Origin: Candidatus Saccharimonadia bacterium
GTDB taxonomy: Bacteria; Patescibacteriota; Saccharimonadia; UBA4664
Direction: 5' to 3'
Length of the DNA stretch: 59,835 nt
NCBI GenBank assembly: GCA_038244585.1
Contig: JBBRTI010000003.1
Coordinates: 1-59,835, forward strand
The notes under the pieces were generated by a model. That model did no database searches. It had not been told where the DNA came from and saw only the letters and a list, made by a program, of their open reading frames with translations. This document shows positions 2,418-50,583 of the stretch, one piece after another; positions within the stretch are counted from its first letter, which is position 1; each line of letters begins with the position of its first letter. Made by a program: the position numbers and the translations under genes.

Positions 2418-2419
2418 TT

Positions 2420-5400
2420 CTACTGGGCCCAGAAGTAGTTCTGCTCTTTGCCGGTTTTGGGATCGAACCAAGCGCCGTGACGCAACAGCAAATCAGTTGT
2501 CGGCGCATAGATAAAGGCGTTGGTCTGGAATGTGGGTGCTGACGCGCTGGCCGCTTGGCTCACTCGGAAGTACATCCAGTAGGCGCCGGCGCCATCGGAG
2601 TCATAATATTCGCTCAATCCGTTGGCCGGTTGCCCGCTGATACGGCAGCCAGAGTTAGCCAAACAATCGGTATTGGTACTGATGGTTTCCCACGATGAAG
2701 TGGTGAGGTGGAACACCTCCAGCTTGATATTAGCCGTGGCGGCGCTAACCGTTGATCCGCCGGTCCACTGCACGTTGGCCGGCGTCGTGTTGTCAGTCTG
2801 CTTAATGTTAAACAAATAGTAAGGCTGCTCGTTGGCATTGCCGTAAAGCGTATCGTAGAAGCCATCGTTACTTTGGACGCCGCAGTAACCCATATCGTTA
2901 GCCACCGAGCTACAGTCGGCCGTGGAGTTGCGCGGAGCCAGGCCAAAGTCTAGGTGATATCTAGCGGCGTTGATGCGAGCATTACGCGGTCCGGCCGGAG
3001 TGGTTTCAATAGCGCTGGGTTTTACCGAAGGAATCTTGAGTTTAGCAATTTTTAAATCCAGGTTACTGGCGTCATAATAACTAACCCATGGCATACCGGA
3101 ATAATCAAAGGCGATGGTAGTATATTGGCCTACCGTACCACCTGTATTGATGCTGCCGCAGTTCCAAGCGGTGGAAGTACAGTTACCGCCGCTGGTCACA
3201 AAATGGGCCACCCGCAAGTCGCCTGCACTGGAGTCGTAGTAGCTGATCCACGGGTTGCCGGTGGCATCAAAGGCAATCGACGAATATTGCCCGTCGGAGG
3301 CCGAGTTATCAACCTGCGTACACTGCCAAGCCGCGCTCAAGCTGCAGTTGCCGCCCGTTCCAACGTATTTGGCTACGTCCAGAGCAGTGTTGGTGCCGTC
3401 GTAATAGGTAATCCAAGGCTTGCCATTGGTATCCATACTCATGGAGGTTGACGACGCGCCGGCCGCGTCCACCGAGGTACATTGCCACAAGCTGGAGGTA
3501 CAGCCGCTACCGCCTGCACCCACATATTGAGCTACGCGCAGTTGACCGTTTGCGCTGTCATAATAACTGATCCAGGGCGTACCGCTACTATCAAAACTCA
3601 GGTTAGAAAATTGGCCGGCGGTGACCGTGGCATCAACCGTGGTACAGGTCCAGGCAGTAGAGAGCCCGCAACCAGTGCCGTTGAGGCCAACGTACTGGGC
3701 CATTCGCAACCGGAAGTTGGTGTTATCATAATAGGCTATCCACGGTACATCAGATTTACTGAAGGCAATTGACGTGTATTGTCCTGTCGAACCATTATCG
3801 ATGGCAGAACAGTTCCACAGTGCCGTACCGCCCGTGCTCAAGCAGGAACCACTGGCCGATACTTCTTGCGCCACACGCAACGTTCCCGCCGTGTTATCAC
3901 GGAATGCCACCCACGGGGTGCCATCGCCCGCGAAGGCCAAGGAGCTATGCTGGCCCTTGGTATTGGTAGTTTCCATAGCTGCACACGTCCACTGGGTATT
4001 GGCACAACCTGTGCCTCCGCTGCCCGAATATTTCGCATATCTGAGTGCCGAGTTTGTTGAATCGTAATAGCTAAGCCACGGTCGGCCGGCCGGGTCAAAG
4101 GCAAAACTGTTATAGGTACCGACGCTATTAGTACTTTGGATAGCCTCACAGCCCCAAGTCGCATCGCCGTCGCAGGTAGGAAAACTAGGGTTGGTGTCTT
4201 TTGAAAACCGTAGGTTGGGAGACGCGTCCATTGTGAGAGTAGGATAAGCTGCCACCGTCGTTGGCCCCCGCCACACACCCTTATCATTGCGGTCTGAGGT
4301 CGATGAAGCCAACATGAACCGATAGGTGGCTCCCGCCGTAGCCTGAGTAGTATCCAGCGTAAATGCCACTTCAGTACACTGCCCGACCAGGTTGCCGGCC
4401 GGCAAAATAGAAGTAGTGCCGGTGGTGGAGTTGGTCTGCGCCTGTGACCCGGTACCCCAGACCCCGTTGGTCCATTGCGCGCCGGCCGTGAGACAGTCGG
4501 CGTCGTTTTGGTTAGTGGTATCATTGACGGCCGTCATATCCGCCTGGGACTTAGTGATACCGGCCGGGCTGACACCCGCGATTCCCGCGGCCGGCAGGAT
4601 TTCCCCGCCGCCAGTGACCTGCGCTGTCCTGAGGGATGTGTTAGTGGGGTCATAATAAGCCGCCCACAAGTTCCCGTCAGGTGCTGTCGCCACACTGGTA
4701 AACTGGCCAGTGCTGGTGCCAGTGTTATCCACCGCGCTACAGTTCCAGGCCGCGCTAGTACAGTTACCTCCTGAGCCAACCAGGCGCGCAATCCTTAATG
4801 AAGTATTGGTTGTGTCGGTGTATGACACCGCAATCTGACCGGAGGCATCCGCCGCAAGCGAAGTGTACCGACCAGTATCAGTGCCGGTGTTGTCCACCTG
4901 CCCGCAGGTCCAGCCCGACCCCGTACAGGCAGTGCCGAAGCCACCACCGTTGGTCGCCACCCTCAGGGCACTGCTGGTAGCGTCATAATAACTAACCCAA
5001 GCATTACCTGTGGGGCCAAATAACAGACTGGGGTACGAGCCCGTATCAGTGCCGGTATTGTCCACAGAGGTGCAAGTGAACGCCACAGAACCGGTTGCGC
5101 CACAACCAGTGCCGTTGGAACCGCCGACGAAGTTAGCGACATTCAGCTCCGTAGAGGCTTTGTCGTAATAGGCAATCCACGGCTTGCCGGCATGGTCAAA
5201 GGCGATACTGGAATAATCAATGCCGGTCGCATTACCTTCATCGAGCACGGCGCAGTTAAAGGTAGCCGTTGCGCCACATCCGGTACCACCGGAAGCCACA
5301 TAGGTGGCATATTTATTGCCTTTGAGGGTACCGTTATCATATGAATACGACACCCAGGCGTTACCGGTCTGGTCAAAAGCAATTGAGCTGAACGAGCCGG

Positions 5401-7768
5401 TGGTATTGGCCGTGTTGTCGACCGTCAGACAGTCCCAGGTAGTGGAGCCTCCCGTGCCGCAACCCGTACCGGCGGTGGTGGTATCAGTATGATAATGAGC
5501 CACCTTAAGGTCGGTGTTAGTAGCATCGTAATAACTCACCCACGGGGTGCCGGCACCATCAAAACCCAGAGAAGTATGCTGGCCCAAGTTGGTAGCGGTG
5601 TTTTTATCGATAACTGTGCATTGCCAGGCGCTGGAGCCGCTAGTACCGCAACCCGTGCCGCCATACCCAACGTATTTACCCACCACCAGGCTCTGACCGG
5701 TGGCATCATAATAGCTCACCCAAGGACGACCCGAGAGATCAAAGGCCATGGACGCATATTGACCGGTATCGGTACCCGCTGTATTATCTACCACCCCGCA
5801 ATTGTATTTGGTATCGGTACAGTTGCCGGCCGCGGTATCAGGCAGGGCATGGCCATCAACTTTATGGAAATAGCCGTCACCACGATCATAAAACAGCCCC
5901 AGACTGCCGGATAACGGGTCCACCCCCGTATTGCGAATATGAAACCGCACCGTCAGCCTCTCGCCCTGCCTAACGTTTGTTATGGGTGTGCTGCCAACGG
6001 CTTGGACCGAATCTCCGTCTGCGGTGTTCCCTACTACAGGCACTTGGTCATCGTTCTGCCAAATGTAGCCGTCCTGATTGAGTTTGGGAGGCCCTGGAAC
6101 AGGCACATTCTGCCAGTAGGCGAAGGAAAATGGACCGCCCGTGGAGGCCGAAATGTTGGTACTACTGACTGAGGCGCCACCATCACTGTCGCTCCAGGTT
6201 AAGGTGCCCGTGCTGCTCATTACAACATGTTTAGCGTAGAGCTTGTTGCCGGAGTCGGTAAACATGAGCATCACACGGTTGAGGTGGAATGGGTCTTTGC
6301 GACTTTTGTAATAGCGGGTGGTGGTGGTAGGTAGCGGGGTTGGGGTAAAGTCGGTTGCTTTGGTGAAGGTCCCGGCGTTACCAGTAAAGTAGTCGATGGC
6401 CTGAGAATTTGAGTCGGCGTACATTACGATACTTCTGGTTGTGGCCCCGTTTATCATCCAGTTGGCCGTCACTAGTTTATTGCCTTGAGTCGGGCCTTCA
6501 CAGGAAGTATCAGCGTTCTGGGTACCCGTCCAAGTACTCCCCGACCAATAACCTAGAGACAAGTCGGAACTACCGGCTTCGATGGCACCAAACACGATTT
6601 CATTGGTCTGAGGATTGGCTGACATGTCTAAACTGGTGCCAGAGTCCGAAACGGTAGGTACGTTGGCTGTAGCCTGCCAGGTACAACTCGCCCCGCCGCC
6701 GGTACACCGTTTGTACTGAATGTGGTTGGTGCCCGTTCCGTTCAGTCCCCAGGCAATCATCAAGTTGCCACTCACCGACTCAAATGCCAGGTCGAAGGCT
6801 TCCACATCCTGATATGTTGTTGAGGATACGGTATCAAGCGTAGTTGTGAGGGCTGCGCTAGGCTCATTGCCCCAGCTGGTTCCATTCCAGGTCATAGCCG
6901 ACAAGTCGCGGTTTGAGTCTCCCCAAATAGCGGCCAGAGTATTTGTATTGGGATCTGATTGCATTTCCACCCAGTCAACCGAGCCGGAGGTGCGCGCGGG
7001 ACTAATGTTGGTAGCCGAGCTCCAATTGCCACCGCCACAGCCTTTCGTACCAGATTTGGTGCGGGTTGCCAACTCATTGGAGCCGGTGCTGCCCGTGGCA
7101 TACAGCACGACGACATTGCCGCTTATTTTCTCATATTCCAATTCGAACGGACGAATGTTGGTTTGGTTGGTGGTAGTGGCCGTCCACTCGTTGCTCCAAC
7201 TTGTACCGTCATAGCACATAGCCTGGAGCGTAGATGGAGATATTTTGTAGACCGCAATAGCCTCAGTCATAATGGGTGAGGTCTTCATCACGAAGCTGGT
7301 GGCGACAGCATTTGAAGCAGTAGTCTGTTCCGTGTCGAAACTATCGGTGCTTTCGGAGTAGTTTTTAAACCGTGGCGTGGTATTACCGGAGAGGGCGTAA
7401 ATAGTTAGGCCGTCCCCTATCGCGATGGACGCGTTGGCGGCGGGCGGAGTTAGCAGGAATGAGAACAGGGATAGAAAAAACGTCAGAGCAAACACCGCTA
7501 CGGCTACTACGTTCATGCGCCGGGTTCGCTCAATTTTATTCTTACGATTCGCCCGATTGCGGTGCTTAAGAATGGACATGTTGTGGGTAATTGTATGTAT
7601 CAGAACATTTATGGGGCCGCCAAATTGTGCTCGAAGGTAGTTAATCGGCCGCAATAATACCGACAATAGATGCTGAGCTGGAGTCAGCGGCGCATTAAAA
7701 CTAGCCGGCTGCACGCGTGCTGTCGGACGCTGGGAGCGAGTTGGGCGACGGAACCCGTCTACGCTCAT
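2420..7768 (-). CDS. Large secreted multi-beta-propeller surface protein/adhesin
   Basis: 1782-aa ORF. Hydrophobic segment ending PPAANA (signal-peptidase-like site), an N-terminal propeller-like region, and two blocks of seven S[IL]AFD..G.PW[IV]SYYD repeats. Confidence 0.88.
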   Translation of the reverse strand: MSVDGFRRPTRSQRPTARVQPASFNAPLTPAQHLLSVLLRPINYLRAQFGGPINVLIHTITHNMSILKHRNRANRKNKIERTRRMNVVAVAVFALTFFLSLFSFLLTPPAANASIAIGDGLTIYALSGNTTPRFKNYSESTDSFDTEQTTASNAVATSFVMKTSPIMTEAIAVYKISPSTLQAMCYDGTSWSNEWTATTTNQTNIRPFELEYEKISGNVVVLYATGSTGSNELATRTKSGTKGCGGGNWSSATNISPARTSGSVDWVEMQSDPNTNTLAAIWGDSNRDLSAMTWNGTSWGNEPSAALTTTLDTVSSTTYQDVEAFDLAFESVSGNLMIAWGLNGTGTNHIQYKRCTGGGASCTWQATANVPTVSDSGTSLDMSANPQTNEIVFGAIEAGSSDLSLGYWSGSTWTGTQNADTSCEGPTQGNKLVTANWMINGATTRSIVMYADSNSQAIDYFTGNAGTFTKATDFTPTPLPTTTTRYYKSRKDPFHLNRVMLMFTDSGNKLYAKHVVMSSTGTLTWSDSDGGASVSSTNISASTGGPFSFAYWQNVPVPGPPKLNQDGYIWQNDDQVPVVGNTADGDSVQAVGSTPITNVRQGERLTVRFHIRNTGVDPLSGSLGLFYDRGDGYFHKVDGHALPDTAAGNCTDTKYNCGVVDNTAGTDTGQYASMAFDLSGRPWVSYYDATGQSLVVGKYVGYGGTGCGTSGSSAWQCTVIDKNTATNLGQHTSLGFDGAGTPWVSYYDATNTDLKVAHYHTDTTTAGTGCGTGGSTTWDCLTVDNTANTTGSFSSIAFDQTGNAWVSYSYDNGTLKGNKYATYVASGGTGCGATATFNCAVLDEGNATGIDYSSIAFDHAGKPWIAYYDKASTELNVANFVGGSNGTGCGATGSVAFTCTSVDNTGTDTGSYPSLLFGPTGNAWVSYYDATSSALRVATNGGGFGTACTGSGWTCGQVDNTGTDTGRYTSLAADASGQIAVSYTDTTNTSLRIARLVGSGGNCTSAAWNCSAVDNTGTSTGQFTSVATAPDGNLWAAYYDPTNTSLRTAQVTGGGEILPAAGIAGVSPAGITKSQADMTAVNDTTNQNDADCLTAGAQWTNGVWGTGSQAQTNSTTGTTSILPAGNLVGQCTEVAFTLDTTQATAGATYRFMLASSTSDRNDKGVWRGPTTVAAYPTLTMDASPNLRFSKDTNPSFPTCDGDATWGCEAIQSTNSVGTYNSFAFDPAGRPWLSYYDSTNSALRYAKYSGSGGTGCANTQWTCAAMETTNTKGQHSSLAFAGDGTPWVAFRDNTAGTLRVAQEVSASGSCLSTGGTALWNCSAIDNGSTGQYTSIAFSKSDVPWIAYYDNTNFRLRMAQYVGLNGTGCGLSTAWTCTTVDATVTAGQFSNLSFDSSGTPWISYYDSANGQLRVAQYVGAGGSGCTSSLWQCTSVDAAGASSTSMSMDTNGKPWITYYDGTNTALDVAKYVGTGGNCSLSAAWQCTQVDNSASDGQYSSIAFDATGNPWISYYDSSAGDLRVAHFVTSGGNCTSTAWNCGSINTGGTVGQYTTIAFDYSGMPWVSYYDASNLDLKIAKLKIPSVKPSAIETTPAGPRNARINAARYHLDFGLAPRNSTADCSSVANDMGYCGVQSNDGFYDTLYGNANEQPYYLFNIKQTDNTTPANVQWTGGSTVSAATANIKLEVFHLTTSSWETISTNTDCLANSGCRISGQPANGLSEYYDSDGAGAYWMYFRVSQAASASAPTFQTNAFIYAPTTDLLLRHGAWFDPKTGKEQNYFWAQ
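3035..4177 (-). repeat. Seven ~50-aa blade repeats (propeller B), each with a Cys pair
   Basis: GTYNSFAFDPAGRPWLSYYD, GQHSSLAFAGDGTPWVAFRD, GQYTSIAFSKSDVPWIAYYD, GQFSNLSFDSSGTPWISYYD, ASSTSMSMDTNGKPWITYYD, GQYSSIAFDATGNPWISYYD, GQYTTIAFDYSGMPWVSYYD. Confidence 0.85.
4612..5825 (-). repeat. Seven ~55-aa blade repeats (propeller A), each with a Cys pair
   Basis: GQYASMAFDLSGRPWVSYYD through GQFTSVATAPDGNLWAAYYD. I counted seven copies. Confidence 0.85.
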
Positions 7769-7850: not shown

Positions 7851-10800
7851 TTAGAAGCTAGCACGGTAATCAAAGCGGATCTCACCGGCCAGGGCACTGT
7901 TGCTCGTGGACGATGAATTCAGACGTACCCGGAAGGTAGCGACTTCGTTAGCCGCAAAACCGCAAGCAGTTATAGTTCCTGAGAGCGGGTTTTCCGACCA
8001 ACCCCCGGTGTTTGAAGTAATAGTGGTCGTAGTGCCGCACTGCGTGCCGTTGGCGCGGAATAATGCCAGTTGGACGCTATCGTTAACGGTCGAACGGAAG
8101 CCCCACATATTGACGGTGGTATCGGAGGCAAAAGCGTTGAAGTCGCTGGGGATGATGTAGTGGACATAGACGTCATAGGTCTGGTTGCTCGTATTGATGG
8201 AGTTCCACTTGTAATAGTTGTGGACGTCGCCAGCGGTAGGACAGAATGCCACGGTGGTCGTGATGGTCAGGCTGGCCAAGTTGGAAGCGGCGCAGAAATC
8301 AGAGGTCATAGTTCCGGTAGTGCCTGTCGCGGCGCTGGCACTCATGGTAGCGCCGGGGTATTCCGGCGATAAGTTAATGCGGCGCGTGGGGCGGGCCGTA
8401 CCGTTGTAAGTAACGGCTTTAGTTGTGGCATCAAATGATGAGTTGTTGGTGGAGTCACCAATTTGGACCAGGTTGGCGAGTTCCACCGTGCCCGTAACAT
8501 ACAACGCCGAGTTAGCCAGGGTACCGTTGCCGAGCGTCGGTGAGCCGCTGCCTAATCGGACTTTGAACTGGCTAGAATCAATCGTCATGACACCGTTGCC
8601 TAACGTCGCGATGCCGGTGGATGTCATGTTGCCGTTGGTCTGGACGCTGAAGACAGTCGAAGATGATGCTTGTAGGTTGACTAGCGTGGTGCCGGCCGTC
8701 TTGTTGATAAACAGTGAGGTATTGGTCGACGTATCGCCTTGGGCGGTGCCAGGTGCCAGCTGGACATACCCGCCCGCATAGAAGGCCGCGTAGGTGCTGC
8801 CGCAGGTCGAGGCGTAGGTCGTACAAATCTGGTAAGTTCCGGTGGTGGCGGTAGCAAACTGGTAGATGACGGCCGCAGTAGGATTGGCGAAGCCAACGCT
8901 TGTAGTGAAACCCGCGTTGGTGCCCGATAGCGTGGTGCCGGCGGCGGCTCCCTGCAAGGTCAGCGACCCGGCCGCCTTGCCGACCGTGACGCCGGAGGCG
9001 GTAGTGGTACCGATATTGATGGCGGTAGCCCCGCTGGCATCGATGGCGCCGGCCGAACTGAACGTGATGCCGGTGACACCGCTGACCGCTCCAGCTCCGG
9101 TTACGCCACCGGCGTTGTTGGCGATGCCGCCGGTGACCGAGGCACCGCCATTGGCGGACAACAACCCCGTGACGTTGACTGCGCTATTGAAGTTGGCCGA
9201 GTTGGTAACGGTCAGACCGTTGGCCGTCAGGAGCCCGGAAGTATTAACGATAGCCAGTTGCGACGTCGCACCCAGCGTTTGGCCGTTGATGGTGCCGCTG
9301 GTTACAGCACCGCCGGCTGCCACCGCGAACTTACTAGTTTCACTACCGCTGGCGCCGCTCCACAAGTCCAATAAATTGCCTCCTATGGCGGCGTTGGTCA
9401 GCTTGGCAAATATCAGAGCATTGCCGGCGCCGGCGTTGGCTGCCGCGGTCACCTTAAGCGCCGAACCGGTTCCGGCACCGCTGTCGAGCTGGAGTACGTC
9501 GGCGGTAGCAGCTCCGGTGTTGGCGAAGCGGTACAGATACTGGCCGGCCGTCAGTCCGACCGACGATGACTCATTAGCGATGTTCTTGCGCAAGTTCGTC
9601 GTGGTACAGGAATTGATGTCGCTCGTACAAATATTATAGGTTGTCGCGCTACTCGGCGCGGCAAATTGGTAAGTTGCCACTGTGGCCGACGATACGGCGT
9701 TGACCGTGGTGTTGCCAAAAACCAGCTTGGAAGCCGAACCACCCTGAACTATGGTTGTCGCTGTCGAATTCCCCACGTTTATGGCGGACGCATTGGAGGT
9801 ACCAAGGTTCACAATTCCTGTAGTCGATGTTGCCGTACCCGAGTCAATTGTGACGTTACCCGAGGTACCGGCGCTGGCGTTGCCGGAAGTTAGCGTGACG
9901 GCGGAACTGACGGCGGCATCAGCCGATTTGAAAGCTCCTCCGCCGGTAATCGTACTGTTTGCCGTCACGGTGGTCGCGCCGGAAATGGCTCCGGCATTAG
10001 TCACGCCACCGCTCTGATTATCCAAACCGCCGGTCAGTTTCAAACTCCCAGTAAGACTGTTCTGGGCGGCGCTGGTTACGTTCAGCGTACCATTAGTGAG
10101 GGTCAAGTTGCCGGCGGACACTGTGACATTCGAGGTGACTCCCAGCGTACCGGTAATAGCTGAGTTGCCTGTGACGCCAATGCCGCCGGCCTGCACAGTT
10201 ACGGCTCCGGCCGAGGTTACAGTGCCGGAAAACTGCGCCGTCGAAGTTATAGTCTGACCATTAATAGCACCTGCGGCCGTCACCGCACCGGCACTCGTGA
10301 CGCTGAATTTACTCACACTAGCTGCCTGTATATCCAATAAGTTGCCGCTGGGCGCGACGTTGGTATTGTTGGCAAAGATAACCGCGGCACCGCCCACTGG
10401 GTTTCCGGACTGGGTTACGCTAAGGGCTGATCCCGTACCTGCCCCAGTCAGTTGCAGCACGTTGCCGGAGGTGTTGGTGAGGCCCATCAGGTACCCGGCG
10501 ACGCCGGCACTGGACGTGTCGGCCGCGTTCTTAGCCAGGTAATTTCCGACGGCCAAGTACGTTCCGGAACAAGTACCGACGACTGTAGTACATACGGTCC
10601 CGCCGGCGTTACTGAACGTCGTAGTAGTGGTAGCCGTCGGGTTGGCAAAGGCAACAGTAGAAGAAAATGTCCCCGCCGCATTCGACATTACCAGGCTGGA
10701 TGAGGCAGCCGCCCCCTGGATCGATACCGTAGCCGGCGTAGCGCCATTGTGGCCGACAGTGATATTAGGCGCGTTCGTGGCTCCGATGTTCAAATTGCCC

Positions 10801-11915
10801 GCGAAGCCGCTGCCGCTCTTGGCTCCGGTATCAATTGAAACGTTTCCGGTACTCGAGTTGGTTCCGGTGCCGTCACCAGATTTGACTGTTACCCCGCCCG
10901 TCGACAGCCCGCTGCCGCCAGTCACATTTCCGCTGCGAACTGTCAGGCTAGCCGTTCCGGCGGCAGCGGAATCAGCTGTAGAGTGAAGTGGAGCCTGTAA
11001 GACGGCTGCTACGCCGGTACCGGAGATATTGAAGTTACTACTCGCCTGTTGGATAGTCGTATTCTGAATAAAATTGCTTGTTGTACCTGTAACAAAGCCA
11101 CAGTTCGCCGAGTTTTGGATACATAGCGTGCCGGCCTCGTTCGGTAGATTGATGGCGTTGTTGGTAGTTGGGGTGATAAACCCGAGAGTGGTTGTAAAAC
11201 CGCCTGAGGTTCCTTTTATGGTCGAGGCGGAAGTGCCCTGCAGAGTAAAGGCCGCTGTGCTTCGACCGATATTCAGACTGGTCTGAGTGCCCGTACCGAT
11301 ATTCATGGCCACGCCAGTAGCGGTATCAATCAGTGGGGCTTGGAGTGAGGTGGCAGCCTGCAGGCTGCCGGTAACGTTGAGTGATCCGGATTGCGCGCTG
11401 CCCGGGTTAAGCTGAGCGAAAGCCGCTGCGCTCAGACCCTGCAGCTTGTCCGAGTTGAAGGCGTAGGCGGCAGCAGTGAACTGGATGCGCGGAGCCATTT
11501 CCGCATCGGTACTGAAGGTGATGCCCATGAATATATTGTCGGTGTTGAAGTCGACCGATCCCGGCAAAGCCGTGACATCGCCTAGGTTGGTCTGGAACAC
11601 GCCGTCGCTGACCGTCAGACTTTTGGACTCGGTCCACACCGCCGCTCCACCGGGAGCCTGCTGGGAGTAGATTTTGAAGACGAAGGTGTAGCTGCCGTTG
11701 GCCACGTTAGTACCGTTGGTGTTGACTACTTTACCCTAGAAATTAACCGTTTTGTTGATGCCTGTGGCGGCTATTACCGGCGCCGGCAAGGTGCCTGCGA
11801 CCACACTCAATACAACGCCTAAAAGACCAGTTAGCGCTAAGGCCTTAGTCTTGTGCCGACGTATGGCTACCGCCGTTACCCTGAATATCCGACTCGTGAC
11901 GAGACGATTGGGCAA
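7851..11915 (-). pseudogene. Modular fibre-like adhesin gene interrupted by an in-frame TAG at 11736-11738
   Basis: GGAG plus TTG at 11915 gives MPNRLVTSRIFRVTAVAIRRHKTKALALTGLLGVVLSVVAGTLPAPVIA-ATGINKTVNF*GKVVNTNGTNVANGSYTF, in frame with the 1284-aa ORF (11705..7851). That ORF has no signal peptide of its own. Confidence 0.65.
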
Positions 11916-11946
11916 ACTTACTCCATCACAACATTTACCCTTATAG

Positions 11947-11975
11947 CATAAGGGTTTTGTTACTTAAACACAAGC
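11947..11975 (-). promoter_or_regulatory. Sigma70-like promoter for the fibre gene
   Basis: TTTAAG-17 nt-TATAAG with an extended TGC. The spacer ends in CTTATGC. Boundaries approximate. Confidence 0.45.
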
Positions 11976-12093
11976 AGTATTAGGCTCACAACAAGGGAAA
12001 ACCCGGGGCGTCAGCGAGTTACCTATACCGGACGGAGCAGCACTTTTATTAAATTAGGTACGACTTGTGTATAATTCGCCAAAAGTACTACCC

Positions 12094-13035
12094 TCACAGG
12101 GACCTGCGCCGCCGCCACAATAACCAGCCCAGCAGCCCGAAAACCCCAGCCACAGCCAAGGCCGCGATCCAAACGATTGCCAAGCCCACATACCAGAACG
12201 TGATAATTGAGGTTTGAGTCTGATAGGTACCGTCATAGCGATAACTGGTTTCAGCCTTGTATCGCCCTGGAAGCCAGGCCGCGCCGACTGTCAGCAGGGG
12301 CGTTTCGTACCGGCGGAAACTTTCGGGCAGGATTGTGCCCGAACCATCGTTCAGGGCGCCACGCCGCACGACTCGCCCCAGCGGATCCGTAATTGTGACA
12401 GTACCCCGAGGTACTAGGTGGACGTTGCCCAGGTTCTGAAACCGCTGGTACACATTAGAGGGCATGCGCAACCCAAACTGGTCAACGCTCTGGCTTACCA
12501 GCTTGAGCCGTGCATTTATACCGCCATCCTTGGTCAACAGGACCAGCGACGACAAGACCTGGCGCAGGTTGACCCGCGGATCCGTCCCCGAAACACCGCC
12601 GGTGTCTGTGACGGCCGTCGCCAAAATTGCTCCGTAATGGCCGCCAGGCGCCAGTGACGGGCGGTTTGTAATCGTTACGTTCACCTGCACGCTCTTTCCT
12701 GCGGCCACGAAAATAGTGTTGGTGCCCAAACTCATCCATGCCGCCAGGCCGTAACGGTGCTCAAGCTCGCTCGTCGGGGTTCCCAAAAAGGCGACTCCAC
12801 CGGACTCGTCCAGGGAGCCGAAATCGACCGCTGAGAGACGGAAATTCTGATCAGTTGGCGTAGTATTGGTCAGTTGCAGAGCGTATTGGGCTTCATTCTG
12901 CTCCGCCGTCAGTACAACGCTCTGAAACGCGGGCGAGATAACAAAGCCCTGGCTAGCGGCGAGCGCCGGCTGAGCCGAACCCAGACCCGCAGTCCAAACA
13001 AGGGTGGCCGCAATCAGGAGACGCCGCAGCCCCAC
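12094..13035 (-). CDS. DUF916/WxL-interacting (CscA-like) membrane protein
   Basis: Signal peptide, ISPAFQSV..LTNTT, LAAWM..V.V.IT...LAPGGHYGAIL, FQNLGNVHLVPRG.V.I.D..G, C-terminal TM plus WRRRR. Confidence 0.75.
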   Translation of the reverse strand: MGLRRLLIAATLVWTAGLGSAQPALAASQGFVISPAFQSVVLTAEQNEAQYALQLTNTTPTDQNFRLSAVDFGSLDESGGVAFLGTPTSELEHRYGLAAWMSLGTNTIFVAAGKSVQVNVTITNRPSLAPGGHYGAILATAVTDTGGVSGTDPRVNLRQVLSSLVLLTKDGGINARLKLVSQSVDQFGLRMPSNVYQRFQNLGNVHLVPRGTVTITDPLGRVVRRGALNDGSGTILPESFRRYETPLLTVGAAWLPGRYKAETSYRYDGTYQTQTSIITFWYVGLAIVWIAALAVAGVFGLLGWLLWRRRRSL

Positions 13036-13037
13036 GG

Positions 13038-14099
13038 CTATTTCTTGCGGCCCAGTTTACGCGCCCCGCTCCAGGTGCCCCGGACCAGGCCGAAGATACC
13101 GAACCCGATGAGCAGGGCCATGGCCAGGAGGGCCAACAGGAAACGCCACGGAATGACCCAAAACGAGATTTCGCTCTCCAAAGGTACGTCACGCTGCCCG
13201 TCGTCATAGACAGCGAACAAATGAGCCGTATACTTGCCAAACCGCAAATGCGGGGTAATATCCTTGCCTTCACCATTACTCCACACCAAATGGTTGACCT
13301 GTTGGTTCTTATCATCAATTTTAGTCTTTCCGCCCTCCACCACTGCTTCGTTATGCGGAAAACCGTCAGTCCAGATGCTGTTATAAATCCTATTCGATTG
13401 CGGCAGGACATTCCCCTGTTCGGCGTTAATAGACAGGGTGGCGACTTGCTCCTTTCCCTTAGTGATAAAGATATTTCCGGAAGGAATCAGGTGGACATTG
13501 CCCCCGTTGTGGAACTGAATATCAAACTTGGCCGGGACGAACTCATAGAGCCGGTGTTCCGACGTGAACGACGATAATTGCAGCGAACGCTTGGCGTTAG
13601 GTACTTTCGCGTCGAGTAATACCAAAACCGCAGTGCCACCATTAATGGCGTTGGTGTTGCCCGGCTGACGTACATCATCGCCCGCGCGGCTGAAGACTAC
13701 AGCGTAATAGTACCCGAAGGCCGCATCTTTAGGCACATTAATAGTCATGTGAACCGTTTGCCAGACGTTGGACGGTGCGTCAAACTGAGTTTTATCGAAC
13801 TTTACCCAGTCAAAGTAGGTATCACCGGGTCCCCGGTCGACGAGCCGCGGCTTGCCTTCAGCGCCGAAGGCGGCGAATTTCATCAGGCTGACCTTGAGGC
13901 GTTGGGTGTCTCCCCCAGCCTGCTTGATTCGCAGGTCAGTGCTGACCGTTTTGCCGGGATCCGTCGAAAGATTAATCGGTAGCGGCGAGGTTATCAGATT
14001 CAACGGCTTAGAGTCGGCGGCCGCCGTGGCCAGGGGCATAAGCAGCTGTGCTGACAGCAGCGTAGCGAAAGTCAGAAAAATGAATAATCGTTGCTTCAT
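13038..14099 (-). CDS. DUF916/WxL-interacting (CscA-like) membrane protein
   Basis: Signal peptide, TSPLPINL..DPG, YFDWVKF..V.MTINVPKDA..GYYYAVVF, FHNGGNVHLIPSG.I.I, C-terminal TM plus basic tail. Confidence 0.78.
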   Translation of the reverse strand: MKQRLFIFLTFATLLSAQLLMPLATAAADSKPLNLITSPLPINLSTDPGKTVSTDLRIKQAGGDTQRLKVSLMKFAAFGAEGKPRLVDRGPGDTYFDWVKFDKTQFDAPSNVWQTVHMTINVPKDAAFGYYYAVVFSRAGDDVRQPGNTNAINGGTAVLVLLDAKVPNAKRSLQLSSFTSEHRLYEFVPAKFDIQFHNGGNVHLIPSGNIFITKGKEQVATLSINAEQGNVLPQSNRIYNSIWTDGFPHNEAVVEGGKTKIDDKNQQVNHLVWSNGEGKDITPHLRFGKYTAHLFAVYDDGQRDVPLESEISFWVIPWRFLLALLAMALLIGFGIFGLVRGTWSGARKLGRKK

Positions 14100-14123: not shown

Positions 14124-15206
14124 CTAAAAGTTGCCGGCGCCCACTACAGTAAGAATATCAGTGTAGTCGCTGGAGGCCGGAGTGTAGTTGGCGATGGCCG
14201 CCCGTTCAATCAAGGTGATAACATCCCCGGCGGAAAAGGCCGGTGACGCGCCGGTACAGGCGGCACTAGGCTGGAATGTTGCGCTTAAGGCTCCGCCCGT
14301 GGCCGAGGTTACTGGGCCGCCAGTCGTTGTCCCATTATACGATGAATCTATCACTAGGGTACAGCCGCCTGCCGCATCCGTCGTCAAGTCAGTATCGAGC
14401 ATATAACCCTCTGTCCCGGCGGTAATTTGTTTCAGCGGCGGCGCCCCCGACATGGTGCTGGTCGTTACAATAGTGTAGTTGGCTGTTGTCGAACGCAACC
14501 CCTGCTGGGAGTCTTTAACCCAGGCAATCCAGCCGCCTTTGGCATTTGTGGTGACACTCACCGTCTTGCCGCTAGTCGAGATTACCTGGGTTGAATCAAG
14601 GTTGGTAACAAACGGGTCGCTGTTACCAGACAAAGCGAAGCTAAAGGACGGCGGTACAACGGCCGTAACTACTATCTGATCATCATTGATGTTCGCCAAG
14701 GCGATATTAGTGAAGTCGATTACAACGGCTCCGGACGTTTGAGTCTGGATATTGGCCTGCTGGTTGGTCGCAGGCCCGGAGGCCGTTGTGAGAGTACTAG
14801 TACCAACAAAATTGAAGCAATACGGTGTGCCGACGGTGAGATCGCCGGACGGAAAGGTGGCCGTCTTGGCGATGTTATCAACGGCTGATGCTGTGCCGAT
14901 ACCAAGCCAAGCCGATGCGCCTGAGGGTAGGTTTGTGGTGGTAACCGTCCAGTTTGCTGCCGTCGCGTTCAACGTGTACGTTGATGGAAAAGTTACGACA
15001 ACTTTACCCTCAGTCGCGGTCGAGGCCGGCGTAGCACAAACCGTACCGCCAGTCGCGGTGTTGACCTTCATACGGTCAAGACGCACATACGCCTGGCTAA
15101 ACCCGACCGCTCCGGCCGCAACAGGCGTGAATGCCGACAACGTACTCAGTACGATTGCCACCACAGACACAATATGAACAATTGTTCGGGGCTTCCAGCT
15201 CCGCAT
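14124..15206 (-). CDS. Secreted WxL-like subunit (paralog 1)
   Basis: Signal peptide. DDQIVVTAVVPPSFSFALSG...V.TNAKGGW.AWVKD...YTDILTVVGAGNF at the C-terminus. Confidence 0.75.
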   Translation of the reverse strand: MRSWKPRTIVHIVSVVAIVLSTLSAFTPVAAGAVGFSQAYVRLDRMKVNTATGGTVCATPASTATEGKVVVTFPSTYTLNATAANWTVTTTNLPSGASAWLGIGTASAVDNIAKTATFPSGDLTVGTPYCFNFVGTSTLTTASGPATNQQANIQTQTSGAVVIDFTNIALANINDDQIVVTAVVPPSFSFALSGNSDPFVTNLDSTQVISTSGKTVSVTTNAKGGWIAWVKDSQQGLRSTTANYTIVTTSTMSGAPPLKQITAGTEGYMLDTDLTTDAAGGCTLVIDSSYNGTTTGGPVTSATGGALSATFQPSAACTGASPAFSAGDVITLIERAAIANYTPASSDYTDILTVVGAGNF

Positions 15207-15326: not shown

Positions 15327-16442
15327 TTAGAAGTTGCCGGCGCCGACGATGGTCAGGATGTCGGAGTAGTCGGATCCGGCCGGGGTGCCACCACGGATGG
15401 TTGCGCGTTCAATGAGGCTGAGGACGTCACCGTCTGAGGTACCAGGAGCGGACGTTTGGCGGGTGCAGGACCCGATTGGCTGGAACGAGGCACTGAAGGC
15501 GCCGACGTTTGTGGCTGAACCGTTGTACTCCGGGTCGACAACTGTGGTGCATCCGCCGACGTTGGCGGTAATGATGGCGGTTACCAGTCCGTAACCCTCG
15601 GTTCCGGCCGTAAGAGCTTCCGGTGTGGCGTTTATCGTACCCTTGGTGGGTATCTTATAGTTGGCGGTGGCTGAGAATAATCCCTGCTGGCTGTCTTTGG
15701 CCCAAGCTATCCAGCCGCCGACTGCGTTCGTCACGATGCTGACGGTTCGGCCAGAGGTGCTGACAATGGCTGCCGGGTCCAGGTTGCTCTGGAAAGCGTC
15801 GGTATTACCATCGAGTGTCAGGGAAAAACTAGGCGGAACAATGGCCGAGACGACAATCTGGTCGTCAGTGATGACAGAGGTCGACCAGTTAGTTTGGTTG
15901 ATTGTGGTTGGTACGACGTCTTCGGTGTAGAGTGTTGCTCCGACTATGGCCGATCCGGCTGCAGCCGTGCTGGTAGTAAAAGTATTGGTACCTGCAATAT
16001 GGAAACAGTAGAGAGTAGCTGCTGCTAAGTCGCCCGATGGGAAGGTTACCGTGTGACCGCTGACCGCGGTTGCGGTACCGATTCCCGGCCAGGCGGCGGC
16101 GGCGACTGCTGGATCACTGCCGGGCTCAGAGGGCAGGTTAAGTGTGTCTACTGTCCAGTTAGCCGTAGTCGCGTTTACGACGAAGTCAGTTCCGGCGCCG
16201 ACCAGCGTCGGGAAAGTGATCTTTACGTCCACTTCTACGCCCGCCGTACTGGCAGCCGTTGGCTTAGCACAGACCATGACGCCAGTTTGGGTCAGGGCCT
16301 TGTGGCGATCCAGCCGTACAAAGGTCTCGGTAAACTGAGGCGCACTGGCCGCCTGAGCAATCTGGATGAACGAGGGCGCCATCGTTTCCAGCAGTATGGC
16401 CGTGGTCGTAGCAAAGATAAGTTTTAATTTTTGGGATTTCAT
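15327..16442 (-). CDS. Secreted WxL-like subunit (paralog 2)
   Basis: Colinear similarity to the 14124 protein (VRLDR, TFPSGDL..T.YCF, DDQIVV.A.VPPSFS). Ends YSDILTIVGAGNF. Confidence 0.78.
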   Translation of the reverse strand: MKSQKLKLIFATTTAILLETMAPSFIQIAQAASAPQFTETFVRLDRHKALTQTGVMVCAKPTAASTAGVEVDVKITFPTLVGAGTDFVVNATTANWTVDTLNLPSEPGSDPAVAAAAWPGIGTATAVSGHTVTFPSGDLAAATLYCFHIAGTNTFTTSTAAAGSAIVGATLYTEDVVPTTINQTNWSTSVITDDQIVVSAIVPPSFSLTLDGNTDAFQSNLDPAAIVSTSGRTVSIVTNAVGGWIAWAKDSQQGLFSATANYKIPTKGTINATPEALTAGTEGYGLVTAIITANVGGCTTVVDPEYNGSATNVGAFSASFQPIGSCTRQTSAPGTSDGDVLSLIERATIRGGTPAGSDYSDILTIVGAGNF

Positions 16443-16580: not shown

Positions 16581-17636
16581 TTAAAAACTGGCCGCTGCAA
16601 CGAGGGTGAGAATCTCAGAGTAATCCTCCGAGGACGGTGTCAACGCCTGGGACTTAGCCTTAAGGATAATGGAACTCTGGCCACCGACGATTGGGGCTGT
16701 GGCGCTGACAATAGTCCTCAGAAGCGTATCGGCAATGCCGACAATGCTGCCGCTGCCGTTATAAGGCGCTGAGGCCGAAAGCGGACCGCCGGAAGTCTGA
16801 GTGACGCTTGACACCTGCGCACCGAAACCTTCGCTCAGCGAGCTGATATCGCCGGATTGCGAGGCAATGGTGTATGCGGTGGTGGCTGATTTAAGGCCGG
16901 CGTTCTTACCTGCGAGGTATACGTTTCCGCCCGACTCGGCATTGGAGGCGAAATTAATCCAGATTGGCAATGACGCGTTGGCGACGCTCGCCGGCAACAG
17001 GCTGGCGAAATTCGCCACATAGGGCGGAGCCGAGGGGTTGTTGGCGGCGGACACGTTGATATCAAAGGCAAGCTGAGGATTAGCCGTGGCAACGTTGGCC
17101 GTCGGTCCGTAGCCGGATTCCGTATAATGTCCGCGATAGGCTTTGGCTTTGACTGTATAAACGGTACCGGAGTTTAAACCCCGTATTAGAACGCCGCTGG
17201 CGCTACCGAAAGCGGCGTAGGTCTGGTAGTCGGCCAGCGCCAGGCTGGCTCCGACCGTCAGATCGCTTTTAACGTATTGAGTGGTCGCGAAGTTGTCGGT
17301 GGATATGGCCACGGCAAACAGCGCGTCGCTGGGGTTACTCTGAGGTCCGATAGTCAACTGCAGCTTGTTATACCACTGGGCATTGTTGGCAATTGCGACG
17401 GTGGGCACATTGGCCTGTTTGGCGTAGGTCTCGCCGCCGCCAATCTTAAAGTTGGAAGAACTGGTAGAGCCAGCCGTATCGCCGGCGATTCCGTTTATAG
17501 AATAATTAGACGAGCTGGTCCCCGCTGTCCCGCCGGTGCCGAAGCCGTAGGAATTGAGCTGGTAGTTACCGCTGGCTGGCAGCGCGGCCAGGATCATAAC
17601 CGACAGCGCCGTCTGTAGCCAATTCCCGCTCGTCAC
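16581..17636 (-). CDS. Secreted WxL-like protein with an FN3-like insert
   Basis: The GTG at 17636 overlaps the upstream TGA (GTGA). S.NY...G.GG N-terminus, GLNSGTVYTVKAKA FN3-like strand, C-terminus YSEILTLVAAASF. Confidence 0.72.
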   Translation of the reverse strand: MTSGNWLQTALSVMILAALPASGNYQLNSYGFGTGGTAGTSSSNYSINGIAGDTAGSTSSSNFKIGGGETYAKQANVPTVAIANNAQWYNKLQLTIGPQSNPSDALFAVAISTDNFATTQYVKSDLTVGASLALADYQTYAAFGSASGVLIRGLNSGTVYTVKAKAYRGHYTESGYGPTANVATANPQLAFDINVSAANNPSAPPYVANFASLLPASVANASLPIWINFASNAESGGNVYLAGKNAGLKSATTAYTIASQSGDISSLSEGFGAQVSSVTQTSGGPLSASAPYNGSGSIVGIADTLLRTIVSATAPIVGGQSSIILKAKSQALTPSSEDYSEILTLVAAASF

Positions 17637-18208
17637 CTGATCCACCTGACGCTTGGCTTGATGACGGCCATGATTTCCTCGGCGCTGGTCTTAATACTCG
17701 AACATGTCACCGAAACCGTCAGGAGTTTGGCCTGATGGACGATGAACAGCGTCTGCTCGCTTCCGTCGGCCTTGATCATGAGGACAGTCTTATCGGCTCC
17801 GAGCAAAGCCTTGGCACGGTACTCGGAGGTATTCATCTCACGCAGGCGGTAGCTGGAGTCCTCATGCGGGTCGCCCGAGGGCAAACTGGAGACATGGACG
17901 GTAATAGCCTGACGATAATCCCCTTTGGGTGAGAGGTTGTACTGCTCCAAGGCAGTGTTATCGGTTTTGATCTGAGCGAGCTGGTCATAGTAAGCCGGAT
18001 AGTCCAGCGACATATATAAGCCGGCCAATTGATGGGGCGGCTGTGGCGTTGGGGCGGCATTGGCCTTGGCGGCAGCCAAGTTGGTCGTTGTGATGTTGCC
18101 GGACACCGGCCCATCAACGAATCTCATGAGAAATATGATTGCCGCGCCGAAGATGACCCCGACGAGGATAAGAATCGATAAAGATTTAGCCAGACTTTGT
18201 CGTGTCAT
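17633..18208 (-). CDS. Single-TM extracytoplasmic hypothetical protein (possibly PsbP-like fold)
   Basis: 191 aa, N-terminal TM, translationally coupled to its neighbours. Confidence 0.65.
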   Translation of the reverse strand: MTRQSLAKSLSILILVGVIFGAAIIFLMRFVDGPVSGNITTTNLAAAKANAAPTPQPPHQLAGLYMSLDYPAYYDQLAQIKTDNTALEQYNLSPKGDYRQAITVHVSSLPSGDPHEDSSYRLREMNTSEYRAKALLGADKTVLMIKADGSEQTLFIVHQAKLLTVSVTCSSIKTSAEEIMAVIKPSVRWIR

Positions 18209-18217: not shown

Positions 18218-19156
18218 TTATGCCAATGCGGCCATTTGGCCCTGCATGACAGTCTTTTCGCGACGCTCGCCCAGCCAGAACGACAGCACCATCAAGAACA
18301 AAACGATGATGAGCGGCCAGATGACCATCAATCCTCCGATATCGATACCGCTGCTGCCCTTGGTGGTGGAAGCCGTCGAGGCCGTTGGTTCGTTGACAAT
18401 CGTCGTCAACTGCAGATAGGCAGTATGTCCCGCGGCATCGGTTGCACGGATGATTAGTGGGAAAGCTCCCAAATAACCGCCGACCTTGTCATAGATATGA
18501 TCGAGAGTGAACGGGCCGGGGCCCAGGCGCGTCACTAGGCTGCTCTTGCCGTCGCCCCATTCGAAATTGACGGCGTATGGCGCCAGTCCGCCGACAATTT
18601 CAATAGGCCAGACAACCTGCTGTCCCGGCACGACCCCGCGATAATAACTGGTCGACTGTAGGAGCAGCTCGCTAGAAAACCCAAAACCTCCGGCTGGGAC
18701 GTTGAGGGTGACGTTGACTGTCGGAGAGTCAGGGCCGGCCTGATCGTTGGTGTTGAAAGCGATGGCAGTAAGGGCGTTAGAGCCAATCAACAGGTCAATC
18801 GGCAGGTTGAAATGGCCCGAGGCGTCGCAGATAATACTACCGGCCAGGACCCCGTTCTTAAAGACTTTGATAAGCGTACCCTTTGGGCATGTGCCCGAGG
18901 CGGTAACCGGGTTGGATACAAAAGTCTGGCCGTTGACCGGCGAGGTAATAACGGCCGGCTGCGTTGGGCGCGGCCCCGGCACCACCGCCAGGACCGTGTA
19001 GGTGCCAGAGCCAGTAAGAGCCGCCTGTGCCGGCGTAGTTACCATCGCCGCAATGAAACTCGTGACCAACAGCAAGAATACGAGCAACGCGTAGGACGTT
19101 TCTCGATGGGGCCTCAGCCGCCCCGTATGCCGATGATGACTTAGCTTTACAACCAT
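18218..19156 (-). CDS. Doubly membrane-anchored Ig-like plus PKD-like protein
   Basis: HHRHTGRLRPHRETSY N-terminus, TM, P..ITSP.NG..V.GTC..G.F...IDL..G.N.L Ig-like domain, WGDG..H.Y...G PKD-like domain, C-terminal TM. Confidence 0.75.
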   Translation of the reverse strand: MVVKLSHHRHTGRLRPHRETSYALLVFLLLVTSFIAAMVTTPAQAALTGSGTYTVLAVVPGPRPTQPAVITSPVNGQTFVSNPVTASGTCPKGTLIKVFKNGVLAGSIICDASGHFNLPIDLLIGSNALTAIAFNTNDQAGPDSPTVNVTLNVPAGGFGFSSELLLQSTSYYRGVVPGQQVVWPIEIVGGLAPYAVNFEWGDGKSSLVTRLGPGPFTLDHIYDKVGGYLGAFPLIIRATDAAGHTAYLQLTTIVNEPTASTASTTKGSSGIDIGGLMVIWPLIIVLFLMVLSFWLGERREKTVMQGQMAALA

Positions 19157-37329: not shown

Positions 37330-37740
37330 TCAGATGGACACAAGGTCCATGGCTGATGCCATCTGATGGCGGAGCCTGGTGCAATCGCGCCTCGGCGTGA
37401 GGGTAGCGGGGTCAGCCGCCAGTATGGCGTTTGTGACCTGCTCACACAATCGGGACTTCGGCGGCACGGCTTGCTTGGGTGCGGACCCGTTGGCCCGACA
37501 AGGGCGACCGTCCCCCTCCGTCAATGCGGCGTGGGTGTACCCCAACTCTTCAGCAACCATGGAATGAAGGTCATGCAGCCTCGCTAGGTCGGCGTGTTGC
37601 AGCTCGTCCAGAATCATGTCATGGACGACCGGACCGATGCCGGCCAGGACGAGCATAGCCTCGACGCAGCGGATGACATTGCTTTCCTGGGTGACCTCAT
37701 GTATGGCGGCCGATACGGCGATACCGAGCGTGGTGTTCAT
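37330..37740 (-). CDS. Hypothetical protein
   Basis: 136 aa. ATGA overlap with the upstream ORF. Confidence 0.55.
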   Translation of the reverse strand: MNTTLGIAVSAAIHEVTQESNVIRCVEAMLVLAGIGPVVHDMILDELQHADLARLHDLHSMVAEELGYTHAALTEGDGRPCRANGSAPKQAVPPKSRLCEQVTNAILAADPATLTPRRDCTRLRHQMASAMDLVSI

Positions 37741-47315: not shown

Positions 47316-47972
47316 TCAGTCCCAGTGTGCAACTACGTTATTGACGCGGTCCATGACCGTAGAAGGGTCGATCCTATCTTCATCGGTATAGTAGTGCGAC
47401 ACGGAAAAAAAGCTGTCGGGAATATAGAGGTAGTGCAGCTCATCGACCAGGCCGTTAAGGCGCTCGATAACTTCGGCCGGACCGACCGGTATTGCCGCCA
47501 CGATCCTCTCGGTGTGAATGCGTCCCAAATAATGCAGGGCGGCATCGAACGACAGCCCGTTTTTGACGCCGTCGGTAGCGATAATAATCGTCCGGCCTTC
47601 CAGCTGGGCAGGGTCGGCCAAGCCGTTATCACCAATGACGGCTGTCATCTGATACATCTGGCGGATTTTCTCTTCTTCCACCCAGTTGCGCATATCCTCC
47701 ATGTAGCCTTCCATCTCGCCGGTGGAGATCATGGAGTTATAAGTGAAGAGGCCTGTCTGGTCCATAGTGCCGATAACCAGGCTATTATCGCCGGGGGCCG
47801 TGATTCGCGAGGTCATGAGCATCGACAGTGCACTGTGAAGGCGGCGGGCGATCTGTTCGCCCACCACGACTCCGCCCGGCGATAGCGCGACGACGGCGGT
47901 ATTGTCCCAGCGGTATTGGGTGAGCTGATCGGCAAGTTGGTCACCAGCCTGGGCGCGATCATGGAAATACAT
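47316..47972 (-). CDS. Phosphoribosyltransferase-like protein
   Basis: MYFHDR..AG..LA..L, VVAL..GGV.VG..IA, IIIATDGV..G.S..AA, A.PV. The PRPP loop is degenerate (ATDG). Confidence 0.85.
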   Translation of the reverse strand: MYFHDRAQAGDQLADQLTQYRWDNTAVVALSPGGVVVGEQIARRLHSALSMLMTSRITAPGDNSLVIGTMDQTGLFTYNSMISTGEMEGYMEDMRNWVEEEKIRQMYQMTAVIGDNGLADPAQLEGRTIIIATDGVKNGLSFDAALHYLGRIHTERIVAAIPVGPAEVIERLNGLVDELHYLYIPDSFFSVSHYYTDEDRIDPSTVMDRVNNVVAHWD

Positions 47973-48032
47973 AAGCACATTGTAGCAGGTAACGATAGAA
48001 CCAGCGTTACAGACTGCGCTACACTAGTCAAT

Positions 48033-49988: not shown

Positions 49989-50022
49989 ACAAGCCCCTCA
50001 AAACCCGCTAGAATATCAAGTA

Positions 50023-50583
50023 ATGACAGCTGACGATATCATCACCATACCCAATCCCCTGCTGCGGGAACGGAGCAAGCGAATCGGCCATGTCGACGGA
50101 TCGACCCAAGCTCTGGCCGAAGGTATGATTTCGGCGACGCTCGAATGGGAGGCCAGCCGCGAGCATGAGTTCGGCGCCGCGCTGGCCGCCATCCAAGTGG
50201 CCCAACCCTATCGGATTGTAGTCATCCGAAACGACTTCGACGACAAGGCAGACAAAAGCTTCACCGTCTTTATCAACCCTGAAATTGTTAAGCAAGAAGG
50301 CATACCGGTTGAGGAGCTGGAAGGGTGCTTAAGTGTTACTGATATCTACGGCAGCGTAGCCCGCTACCCTAAGGTTAAAGTGAAGGCCCTCAACCTGGAC
50401 GGCAAGCCGTTCCGTGTCACGGCCACCGGATTCCTGGCCAGGGTCTTCCAGCACGAAATCGATCACACCAACGGCGTTGTCTTCGTAGACCGTATCCACG
50501 ACCCTCATAAGCTCTACCGGTTGGAGTCGGATGGTAAATTCACCCCCCTAGCCGCCGTGGAACTGGGAATCAAACGACCTTGA
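50023..50583 (+). CDS. def: Peptide deformylase
   Basis: GAALAA.QV, EGCLSV, QHEIDH.NG. Start at the ATG at 50023. Confidence 0.96.
   Translation: MTADDIITIPNPLLRERSKRIGHVDGSTQALAEGMISATLEWEASREHEFGAALAAIQVAQPYRIVVIRNDFDDKADKSFTVFINPEIVKQEGIPVEELEGCLSVTDIYGSVARYPKVKVKALNLDGKPFRVTATGFLARVFQHEIDHTNGVVFVDRIHDPHKLYRLESDGKFTPLAAVELGIKRP

Follow-up and report, generated by a model that had tools for sequence, protein, structure and literature searches.

We have analyzed an amber codon that interrupts the gene of a giant fibre protein in Candidatus Saccharimonadia bacterium (GenBank assembly GCA_038244585.1). The window, meaning the whole stretch of DNA under study, was the complete contig JBBRTI010000003.1 of 59,835 nucleotides (nt); all coordinates are window positions, and the fibre gene lies on the minus strand. 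The TAG at 11736-11738 stands where all homologs compared have a glutamine. It is either a point nonsense variant of the ordinary kind or a consensus error, the gene being otherwise intact, and it is neither fixed nor programmed. Since an independent assembly of the same population reads CAG at the site, this population has an intact gene and the stop is private to the deposited contig.

The gene could be delimited by the following features.

11921..11924, minus strand: GGAG Shine-Dalgarno-like element, seen in the sequence, with a 5-nt spacer to the TTG.
11913..11915, minus strand: TTG start of the full-length fibre gene, the first start codon after a preceding in-frame TGA.
11769..11915, minus strand: predicted Sec signal peptide, codons 1-49, from hydropathy and from homologs of the same layout ending AxA-(A)TGIN.
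11736..11738, minus strand: amber TAG, codon 60, in place of the invariant Gln CAG, from the sequence and the homolog alignment.
11421..11768, minus strand: conserved N-terminal beta-sandwich domain (about residues 50-165, first strand VNFQGK), from AlphaFold2 and homology.
7854..8474, minus strand: conserved C-terminal jelly-roll domain of about 200 residues, the putative binding end, from AlphaFold2 and Foldseek.
7851..11915, minus strand: full-length fibre gene, 1354 residues if codon 60 is Gln, intact except for the amber codon.
7851..11705, minus strand: annotated open reading frame (ORF) with GTG start, 1284 residues, beginning MANGSY, from the public record (NCBI only).
11637..11639, minus strand: in-frame GTG with a GGAG 5 nt upstream in the sequence, the sole plausible re-initiation site.

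The 59 sense codons between the TTG at 11915 and the TAG translate on the minus strand as LPNRLVTSRIFRVTAVAIRRHKTKALALTGLLGVVLSVVAGTLPAPVIAATGINKTVNF. This segment has a basic n-region (RRHKTK) and a hydrophobic core at residues 25-41 (Kyte-Doolittle above 2), and cleavage would probably occur after V-I-A, which precedes the mature N-terminus ATGINK. Each residue of this segment could be paired with one in the signal peptide or the ATGINKxVNF stretch of the homologs, and the match is not chance. Downstream of the TAG, 1294 in-frame codons run without frameshift up to the TAA at 7853-7851. An earlier note on this DNA, made from its letters, had described the GGAG-preceded TTG at 11915, the signal peptide, the TAG at 11736-11738 and the unbroken frame into the 1284-residue ORF, and all of them were found at these positions.

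The annotated ORF was a different matter. A Shine-Dalgarno sequence was looked for within 20 nt of its GTG (11705) and none was found, and its product has no hydrophobic N-terminus, so that sequence and hydropathy agreed with the previous description of a product lacking both an export signal and a ribosome-binding site. Because it has neither a Shine-Dalgarno sequence nor a signal peptide, the 1284-residue annotated ORF is an artefact of the stop codon. Translation restarting at GTG 11639 would likewise give a product without the signal peptide and without the first strands of the N-terminal domain.

The glutamine at codon 60 was invariant in the homologs compared. In a 31-sequence alignment F59, Q60 and G61 were invariant, and the (N/S)FQGK motif was present in 30/30 close homologs. 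Among cluster representatives at 50% identity, the best 143 of which were fetched, the Gln was found in all 142 that were not the protein itself, with the motif reading NFQGK in 107, SFQGK in 23 and HFQGK in 3, and the other nine judged by eye. The NFQG motif given in the earlier note was thus verified by search, and the comparison for Gln at this site that the note had proposed gave Gln throughout (30/30 homologs, 142/142 representatives). In 133 representatives the motif lay at a median position of residue 41, with a hydrophobic stretch upstream in 122 of them. In the best 150 cluster representatives listed, the annotated MANGSY product was the sole full-length protein starting inside the domain.

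The codon usage of the relatives led to the same site. Codon Gln-60 was CAG, in the context TTC-CAG-GGN, in relatives L001, L002 and L005 (CP064960.1) and in a contig from the sequencing run SRR19962014 (L006), and the relative L003 read TTT-CAA-GGC. This was in line with the TAG being one C-to-T change away from CAG, as had been suggested, the homologs having an invariant Gln and the relatives a CAG codon there.

The N-terminal domain places the protein in a predicted, uncurated family of patescibacterial giant surface proteins that carry a GINxQ(I/V)NFQGK beta-sandwich domain. A phmmer search with this domain returned 13,306 cluster representatives at E<=1e-3, of which 1,934 reached E<=1e-10; identity was 72-87% for the top matches. 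The best 143 representatives had a median length of 1316 residues (range 145-3660), and the relatives of the fibre gene come from Candidatus Saccharibacteria/Saccharimonadales genomes. Like other members of the family, the fibre protein has a predicted Sec signal peptide ending AxA with the conserved domain directly after it. The F-Q-G of the first strand is F-TAG-G in the window and F-Q-G in the SRR19962014 contig.

The AlphaFold2 model of the closest homolog (P0001) showed a confident beta-sandwich, with a predicted local distance difference test (pLDDT) of ~87-97 over residues 51-130. Its first strand comprises residues 46-51 (VNFQGK) and holds the mutated Gln. Searches of Pfam, NCBIfam and PHROGs with the fibre protein matched no model. 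Foldseek retrieved for the N-terminal domain only generic immunoglobulin (Ig)-like or macroglobulin-like sandwiches at E >0.02, and because these matches are to generic folds we claim no named family for the domain.

The comparison with an independent assembly was based on SRR19962014, a sediment metagenome and the only public run in which the sequence was nearly intact (0.94 of sampled words). The evidence on the alleles comes from assembler contigs (Logan), in which minor alleles are dropped. Contig SRR19962014_1210016 (4705 nt, depth 8.3) was identical to the window over 612 nt (11389-12000) except at position 11738, where the window has A on the plus strand and T on the gene strand and the contig has G on the plus strand, giving CAG on the gene strand. 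The gene caller picked the same TTG on this contig (contig position 4179), and the gene reads INKTVNFQGKVVNTNG. A ~90%-identical relative in a soil run also had G on the plus strand at the site. The earlier note had taken CAG in the reads as the mark of an assembly error; the CAG found here in an independent contig goes part of the way towards that refutation.

The amber codon was not the only difference between the two assemblies. About 20 single-letter differences and 0 indels were scattered over ~58 kb between the window and the SRR19962014 contigs, so that the amber is one variant site among many. Thirteen of them fell in ORFs of at least 150 residues, namely 4 synonymous, 8 missense and 1 nonsense (the amber). 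All 4 synonymous differences were transitions, and 7 of the 8 missense differences were transversions.

Three of these sites were informative about the direction of change. At 14266 (codon 314 of the gene 14124..15206) a Ser in the window stands against Ile or Leu in the SRR19962014 contig, in the orthologs and in the neighbouring paralog. Within the pilus cluster described below, this is a second site at which the deposited contig has a derived state that alters the protein. At 33071, codon 272 of FtsA is GGT (Gly) in the window and GTT (Val) in the SRR19962014 contig, i.e., G272V. This Gly272 is invariant among solved FtsA structures, and G272V in the SRR19962014 assembly is either a doubtful call or a deleterious variant. 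At 45485 both states were plausible, and a second run of the same study, whose contigs do not extend over 11738, agreed with SRR19962014. Derived states were thus found on both sides, in the window at 11738 and 14266 and in SRR19962014 at FtsA codon 272, and the latter showed that the window is not the derived side throughout. The two consensus sequences are either different samplings of a slightly heterogeneous low-coverage population, or both of them contain some errors.

Five of the ~20 differences clustered at 37272-37714, four of them within 37 nt (37678-37714). These four lie in or next to a 136-residue ORF (37330..37740, minus strand), near the end of a short Logan contig. The cluster is either a local hypervariable spot or a contig-end artefact.

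On balance we lean, if only a little, towards T being a real and recent nonsense allele that segregates in a low-coverage natural population and was caught by one assembler only. A single C-to-T transition on the gene strand (CCAGG to CTAGG) would have turned the Gln-60 codon, in the first beta-strand of the N-terminal domain, into an amber codon. The rest of the fibre gene would be untouched, and the CAG allele would also be present in the SRR19962014 population; the ~20 other variant sites of the contig would behave likewise between the assemblies. In carriers of T, release factor 1 would end translation once the signal peptide and 10 further residues had been made. A restart, e.g., at GTG 11639, would give a cytoplasmic protein that cannot be exported, and as the restart product would have no export signal, the fibre would be missing from the surface of these cells. 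Polarity on the 1782-residue gene 82 nt downstream would also be possible.

The change would then be a plain loss-of-function point mutation, as opposed to recoding, phase variation or programmed readthrough. If the gene has been inactivated at all, this must have happened very recently, since the remaining 1353 codons show no damage, those of the conserved C-terminal domain among them. The recent inactivation that had been proposed was thus upheld as regards its recency, with the rest of the gene intact, and weakened as regards the inactivation itself, with the same population carrying CAG; the change of host range that the note thought possible would be purely conjectural. The disagreement between the assemblies was ~3e-4 per base without indels, which by our own estimate is typical of within-population diversity and lies far above the usual short-read consensus error. 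We have rated a real T allele somewhat likelier than an artefact because of this fit.

Several observations weigh against a real allele. The T was not found outside the deposited contig among the sequences compared, and in the sole independent look at the site the base was C. Of the 13 coding differences, nine alter the protein; 7 of these 9 are transversions and one, carried by the SRR19962014 contig, hits the invariant FtsA Gly, a pattern that error or DNA damage would explain as well as selected polymorphism. The coverage was only ~8x. A C-to-T change is the classic signature of cytosine-deamination damage, and the DNA came from sediment.

These observations leave a consensus or assembly artefact as a quite possible explanation, in which the DNA would read CAG, the gene would be intact and the T would come from a sequencing error, polymerase chain reaction duplicates, deamination damage or a polishing slip. 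Such an artefact would be compatible with an independent assembly of the same run reading CAG, with a T allele found nowhere else and with the low (~8x) coverage. Gln-60 is invariant in >170 sequences, which makes a stop there suspect a priori. The protein changes FtsA G272V (SRR19962014) and S314 (window, vs. a conserved Ile/Leu) are implausible, and hence at least one consensus carries doubtful calls. However, 20 errors in ~58 kb without indels would be an unusually bad short-read consensus, and assemblers normally require at least two reads to retain a k-mer. The four synonymous transitions and the one other difference confirmed by the second run also argue against error, since they support that many of the ~20 sites are real polymorphisms.

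The sequence context offered a lead on how a real T could have arisen. With the SRR19962014 base the site is CCAGG, whose inner C has changed to give CTAGG on the gene strand; a Dcm-type deamination hot spot would be mutated at just this C of CCWGG. Coulondre, Miller and colleagues reportedly traced, in 1978, amber hot spots in Escherichia coli lacI at CCAGG to deamination of 5-methylcytosine at Dcm sites. The geometry here is the same, the inner C of CCAGG changing to T and CAG to TAG, but no Dcm-type methyltransferase is known for this organism and CCWGG is not clearly depleted in the contig (CCAGG, 108 observed vs. 112 expected; CCTGG, 71 vs. 89). A Dcm-type hot spot as the origin of T is, accordingly, a lead only.

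A further elaboration of the real-allele reading would be that the amber allele is supported by reads at intermediate frequency, next to the intact allele in one and the same sediment population, arose at a methyl-cytosine hot spot and is kept by selection. It would then represent natural presence/absence heterogeneity of a Pam-pilus-associated, tail-fibre-like adhesin in an episymbiotic Patescibacterium. Selection might act, e.g., through escape from a phage that uses the fibre as receptor, or through hosts divided between sub-populations. We regard this whole scenario as unlikely.

A regulated on/off (phase) variation, with the stop as one state of a reversible switch, is less probable still. 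Surface adhesins are common targets of phase variation, and a CAG "on" and a TAG "off" allele were both seen for the same population. As in adhesins whose phase is switched by simple-sequence repeats or invertible promoters, one population would contain a surface protein both intact and in a null form; those systems differ in that the change here is a single base substitution without built-in reversibility, repeat tract or invertible segment. At the 5' end and promoter only short, chance-level homopolymer or short-repeat tracts were found, and no inverted repeats beyond chance level bracket the promoter or the 5' end as in an invertible element. Reversion of a point nonsense mutation is limited to the background mutation rate. 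Recurrence at the site was also not seen in other metagenomes: in Joint Genome Institute (JGI) metagenome contigs an exact 30-mer with either allele gave 0 matches, and a degenerate N-F-TAG-G-K...N..G-T-N pattern also gave 0 matches, in a scan that had no CAG-form control. The on/off variation put forward earlier was therefore rejected, there being no repeat tract and no invertible segment.

Programmed decoding of the TAG, whereby a full-length protein would be made through reassignment to Gln, a suppressor transfer RNA (tRNA), pyrrolysine or context-driven readthrough, appears even more remote. Reassignment of TAG to Gln is known elsewhere, e.g., in recoded phages, and the stop does stand exactly where a Gln is required, as in such systems. 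Unlike in these, TAG is an ordinary and frequent terminator here, ending 14/37 long ORFs of the contig; it occurs within a gene a single time, and the sister assembly has CAG. A scan of the contig for same-frame ORF pairs revealed no other in-gene stop, and no tRNA genes were found in the window. The same population has CAG, and no other family member examined has TAG at the site. TAG recoding or programmed readthrough was thus rejected on its usage as a terminator, the lone in-gene stop and the absence of window tRNA genes, and with it the local readthrough considered in the earlier note.

That the gene truly starts at GTG 11705, with the upstream 59 codons no part of it, agrees with the 1284-residue product of the public record and can practically be dismissed, since all homologs open with a signal peptide followed by GINxQxNFQGK, the GTG has no Shine-Dalgarno sequence, the upstream 59 codons match the homologs residue for residue and the ortholog N-termini contradict it.

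The remainder of the fibre protein gave indications of its likely role. After the signal peptide and the N-terminal beta-sandwich, the protein would continue as a long shaft rich in Ala/Gly/Ser/Thr and end in the C-terminal jelly-roll. The middle part shows an obvious abundance of Ala, Gly, Ser, Thr and Asn and was modelled with low confidence. For the C-terminal domain AlphaFold2 gave a predicted template modelling score (pTM) of 0.71 and a pLDDT of ~90 or above over about the last 110 residues. Foldseek matched this domain to the carbohydrate-binding module (CBM) CBM61 (2xon, E 3e-5) and to the distal domains of phage tailspikes and tail fibres, namely the K2-2 tailspike (8iq9), CBA120 TSP4 (5w6h) and 7xyc, and two homologs carry PF02018 (CBM_4_9). 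Given the likeness of the C-terminal jelly-roll to carbohydrate-binding modules and to the tips of phage tailspikes, the models can fairly be read as a secreted fibre that would bind glycans with its tip and possibly acts as an adhesin.

The contig carries housekeeping genes (FtsZ/FtsA, IleRS, RecJ, RelA, SecDF and IF2-like) and has 56% G+C. The genes that surround the fibre gene are the following.

18218..19156, minus strand: PamR-like pilus anchor with signal peptide and C-terminal transmembrane helix, from NCBIfam NF058578 and hydropathy.
16581..17645, minus strand: pilin-like secreted protein with a weak N-terminal PamT match (26 bits vs. a cut-off of 240).
15327..16442, minus strand: pilin-like paralog, secreted, from the C-terminal motif.
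14124..15206, minus strand: pilin-like paralog, secreted, from the C-terminal motif.
13038..14099, minus strand: chaperone-like gene, signal peptide and C-terminal transmembrane anchor, with weak fn3/Ig-like matches.
12094..13035, minus strand: chaperone-like gene, signal peptide and C-terminal transmembrane anchor, with weak fn3/Ig-like matches.
2420..7768, minus strand: 1782-residue repeat-rich giant protein, 82 nt after the fibre gene, a conserved neighbour in CP064960.1.

The region 12094-19156 is a predicted Pam-type (candidate phyla radiation, CPR) pilus operon in a Saccharibacteria-like genome, with the fibre gene directly downstream. The PamR model (NF058578) matched over its full length with an E value of 9.8e-84; its score of 280.7 bits fell slightly short of the curated cut-off of 300. 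The three pilin-like proteins have in common a C-terminal motif of approximately SDY-x-x-ILT-x-V-x-A-x-x-F. Pam loci contain two chaperones, PamC and PamD, each with a signal peptide and a C-terminal transmembrane anchor (10.64898/2026.03.03.709456). The two genes at 12094..13035 and 13038..14099 have exactly this layout; the family models searched with the two proteins (12094..14099) gave none that matched, beyond the weak fn3/Ig-like similarity.

According to Troman et al. (bioRxiv 10.64898/2026.03.03.709456), pam operons are consistently accompanied by a tail fibre-like protein, to which the preprint assigns no function. Such a co-localised protein was also found here. The order PamR, small protein, PamT-like, two pilin-like, two chaperone-like, fibre and 1782-residue giant was conserved in CP064960.1 (L005), and the operon-to-fibre junction was conserved in the relatives L001, L002, L003 and L005. 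The fibre gene has the same pam-adjacent position as the tail fibre-like protein of the preprint, with the order conserved in four relatives, and the likeness extends to a C-terminal domain that resembles phage tailspike/tail-fibre tips. The window gene would thus correspond to that protein, as judged from position; a difference is that the window copy has the amber codon. The downstream 1782-residue protein has a single hydrophobic segment near its N-terminus (about residues 84-110), contains strongly repeated segments in its interior and gave only weak matches to PHROGs of unknown function.

The CP064960.1 ortholog is syntenic with the full-length fibre gene and similar to it end to end. In that genome the fibre ortholog (10001-15719) is broken up over different frames, into at least four ORFs (347, 961, 102 and 463 residues), which reflects either assembly frameshift errors or independent decay. 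The giant gene downstream of it is likewise split.

The public 1284-residue form, without signal peptide, misrepresents a secreted protein of 1354 residues, and the CAG form is the one to use when mining Pam-pilus loci or patescibacterial surface proteins. The fibre family is large (thousands of cluster representatives, typically 500-3600 residues), uncurated and tied by position to a newly described CPR pilus, and the fibre is a reasonable candidate for a host-binding component, given its C-terminal likeness to carbohydrate-binding modules and phage tailspike tips. Little can be learned from the stop codon as such unless reads show that the allele is real and reaches an appreciable frequency; the population would then offer a natural knock-out in which one could ask whether cells can do without the fibre. 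The two side results, namely the truncated public annotation and the fibre-like neighbour of the Pam pilus operon with its CBM-like tip, are more useful than the stop.

Some minor observations concern the locus. In the 178-nt spacer between the last operon gene and the fibre gene there is a perfect 8-bp stem with a 3-nt loop (ACCCTTATAGCATAAGGGT, 11937-11955), which precedes the fibre gene's GGAG by 13 nt. Possible roles are those of a terminator, an attenuator or an RNA-stability element. One SRR19962014 contig (depth 11) joins position 15966 to 17240 with 3 extra letters, linking two pilin-like paralogs. This join could be a recombinant, a deleted variant or an assembler join across the shared motif.

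Elsewhere on the contig, at 47916-50583 on the plus strand, the ORFs 47916..49988 and 49795..50583 share ~190 nt. The second, whose N-terminal translation is odd and rich in Pro/Arg/Ser, may be a mis-framed or frameshifted gene that precedes the formyltransferase-like gene. A 5S ribosomal RNA (rRNA) gene (58941-59048) and the 3' end of a 23S rRNA gene (59238-59835) occupy the contig end on the minus strand. The word depth at this end was >3500 in both runs, a sign of sequence conserved across taxa, and the contig breaks there for this reason.

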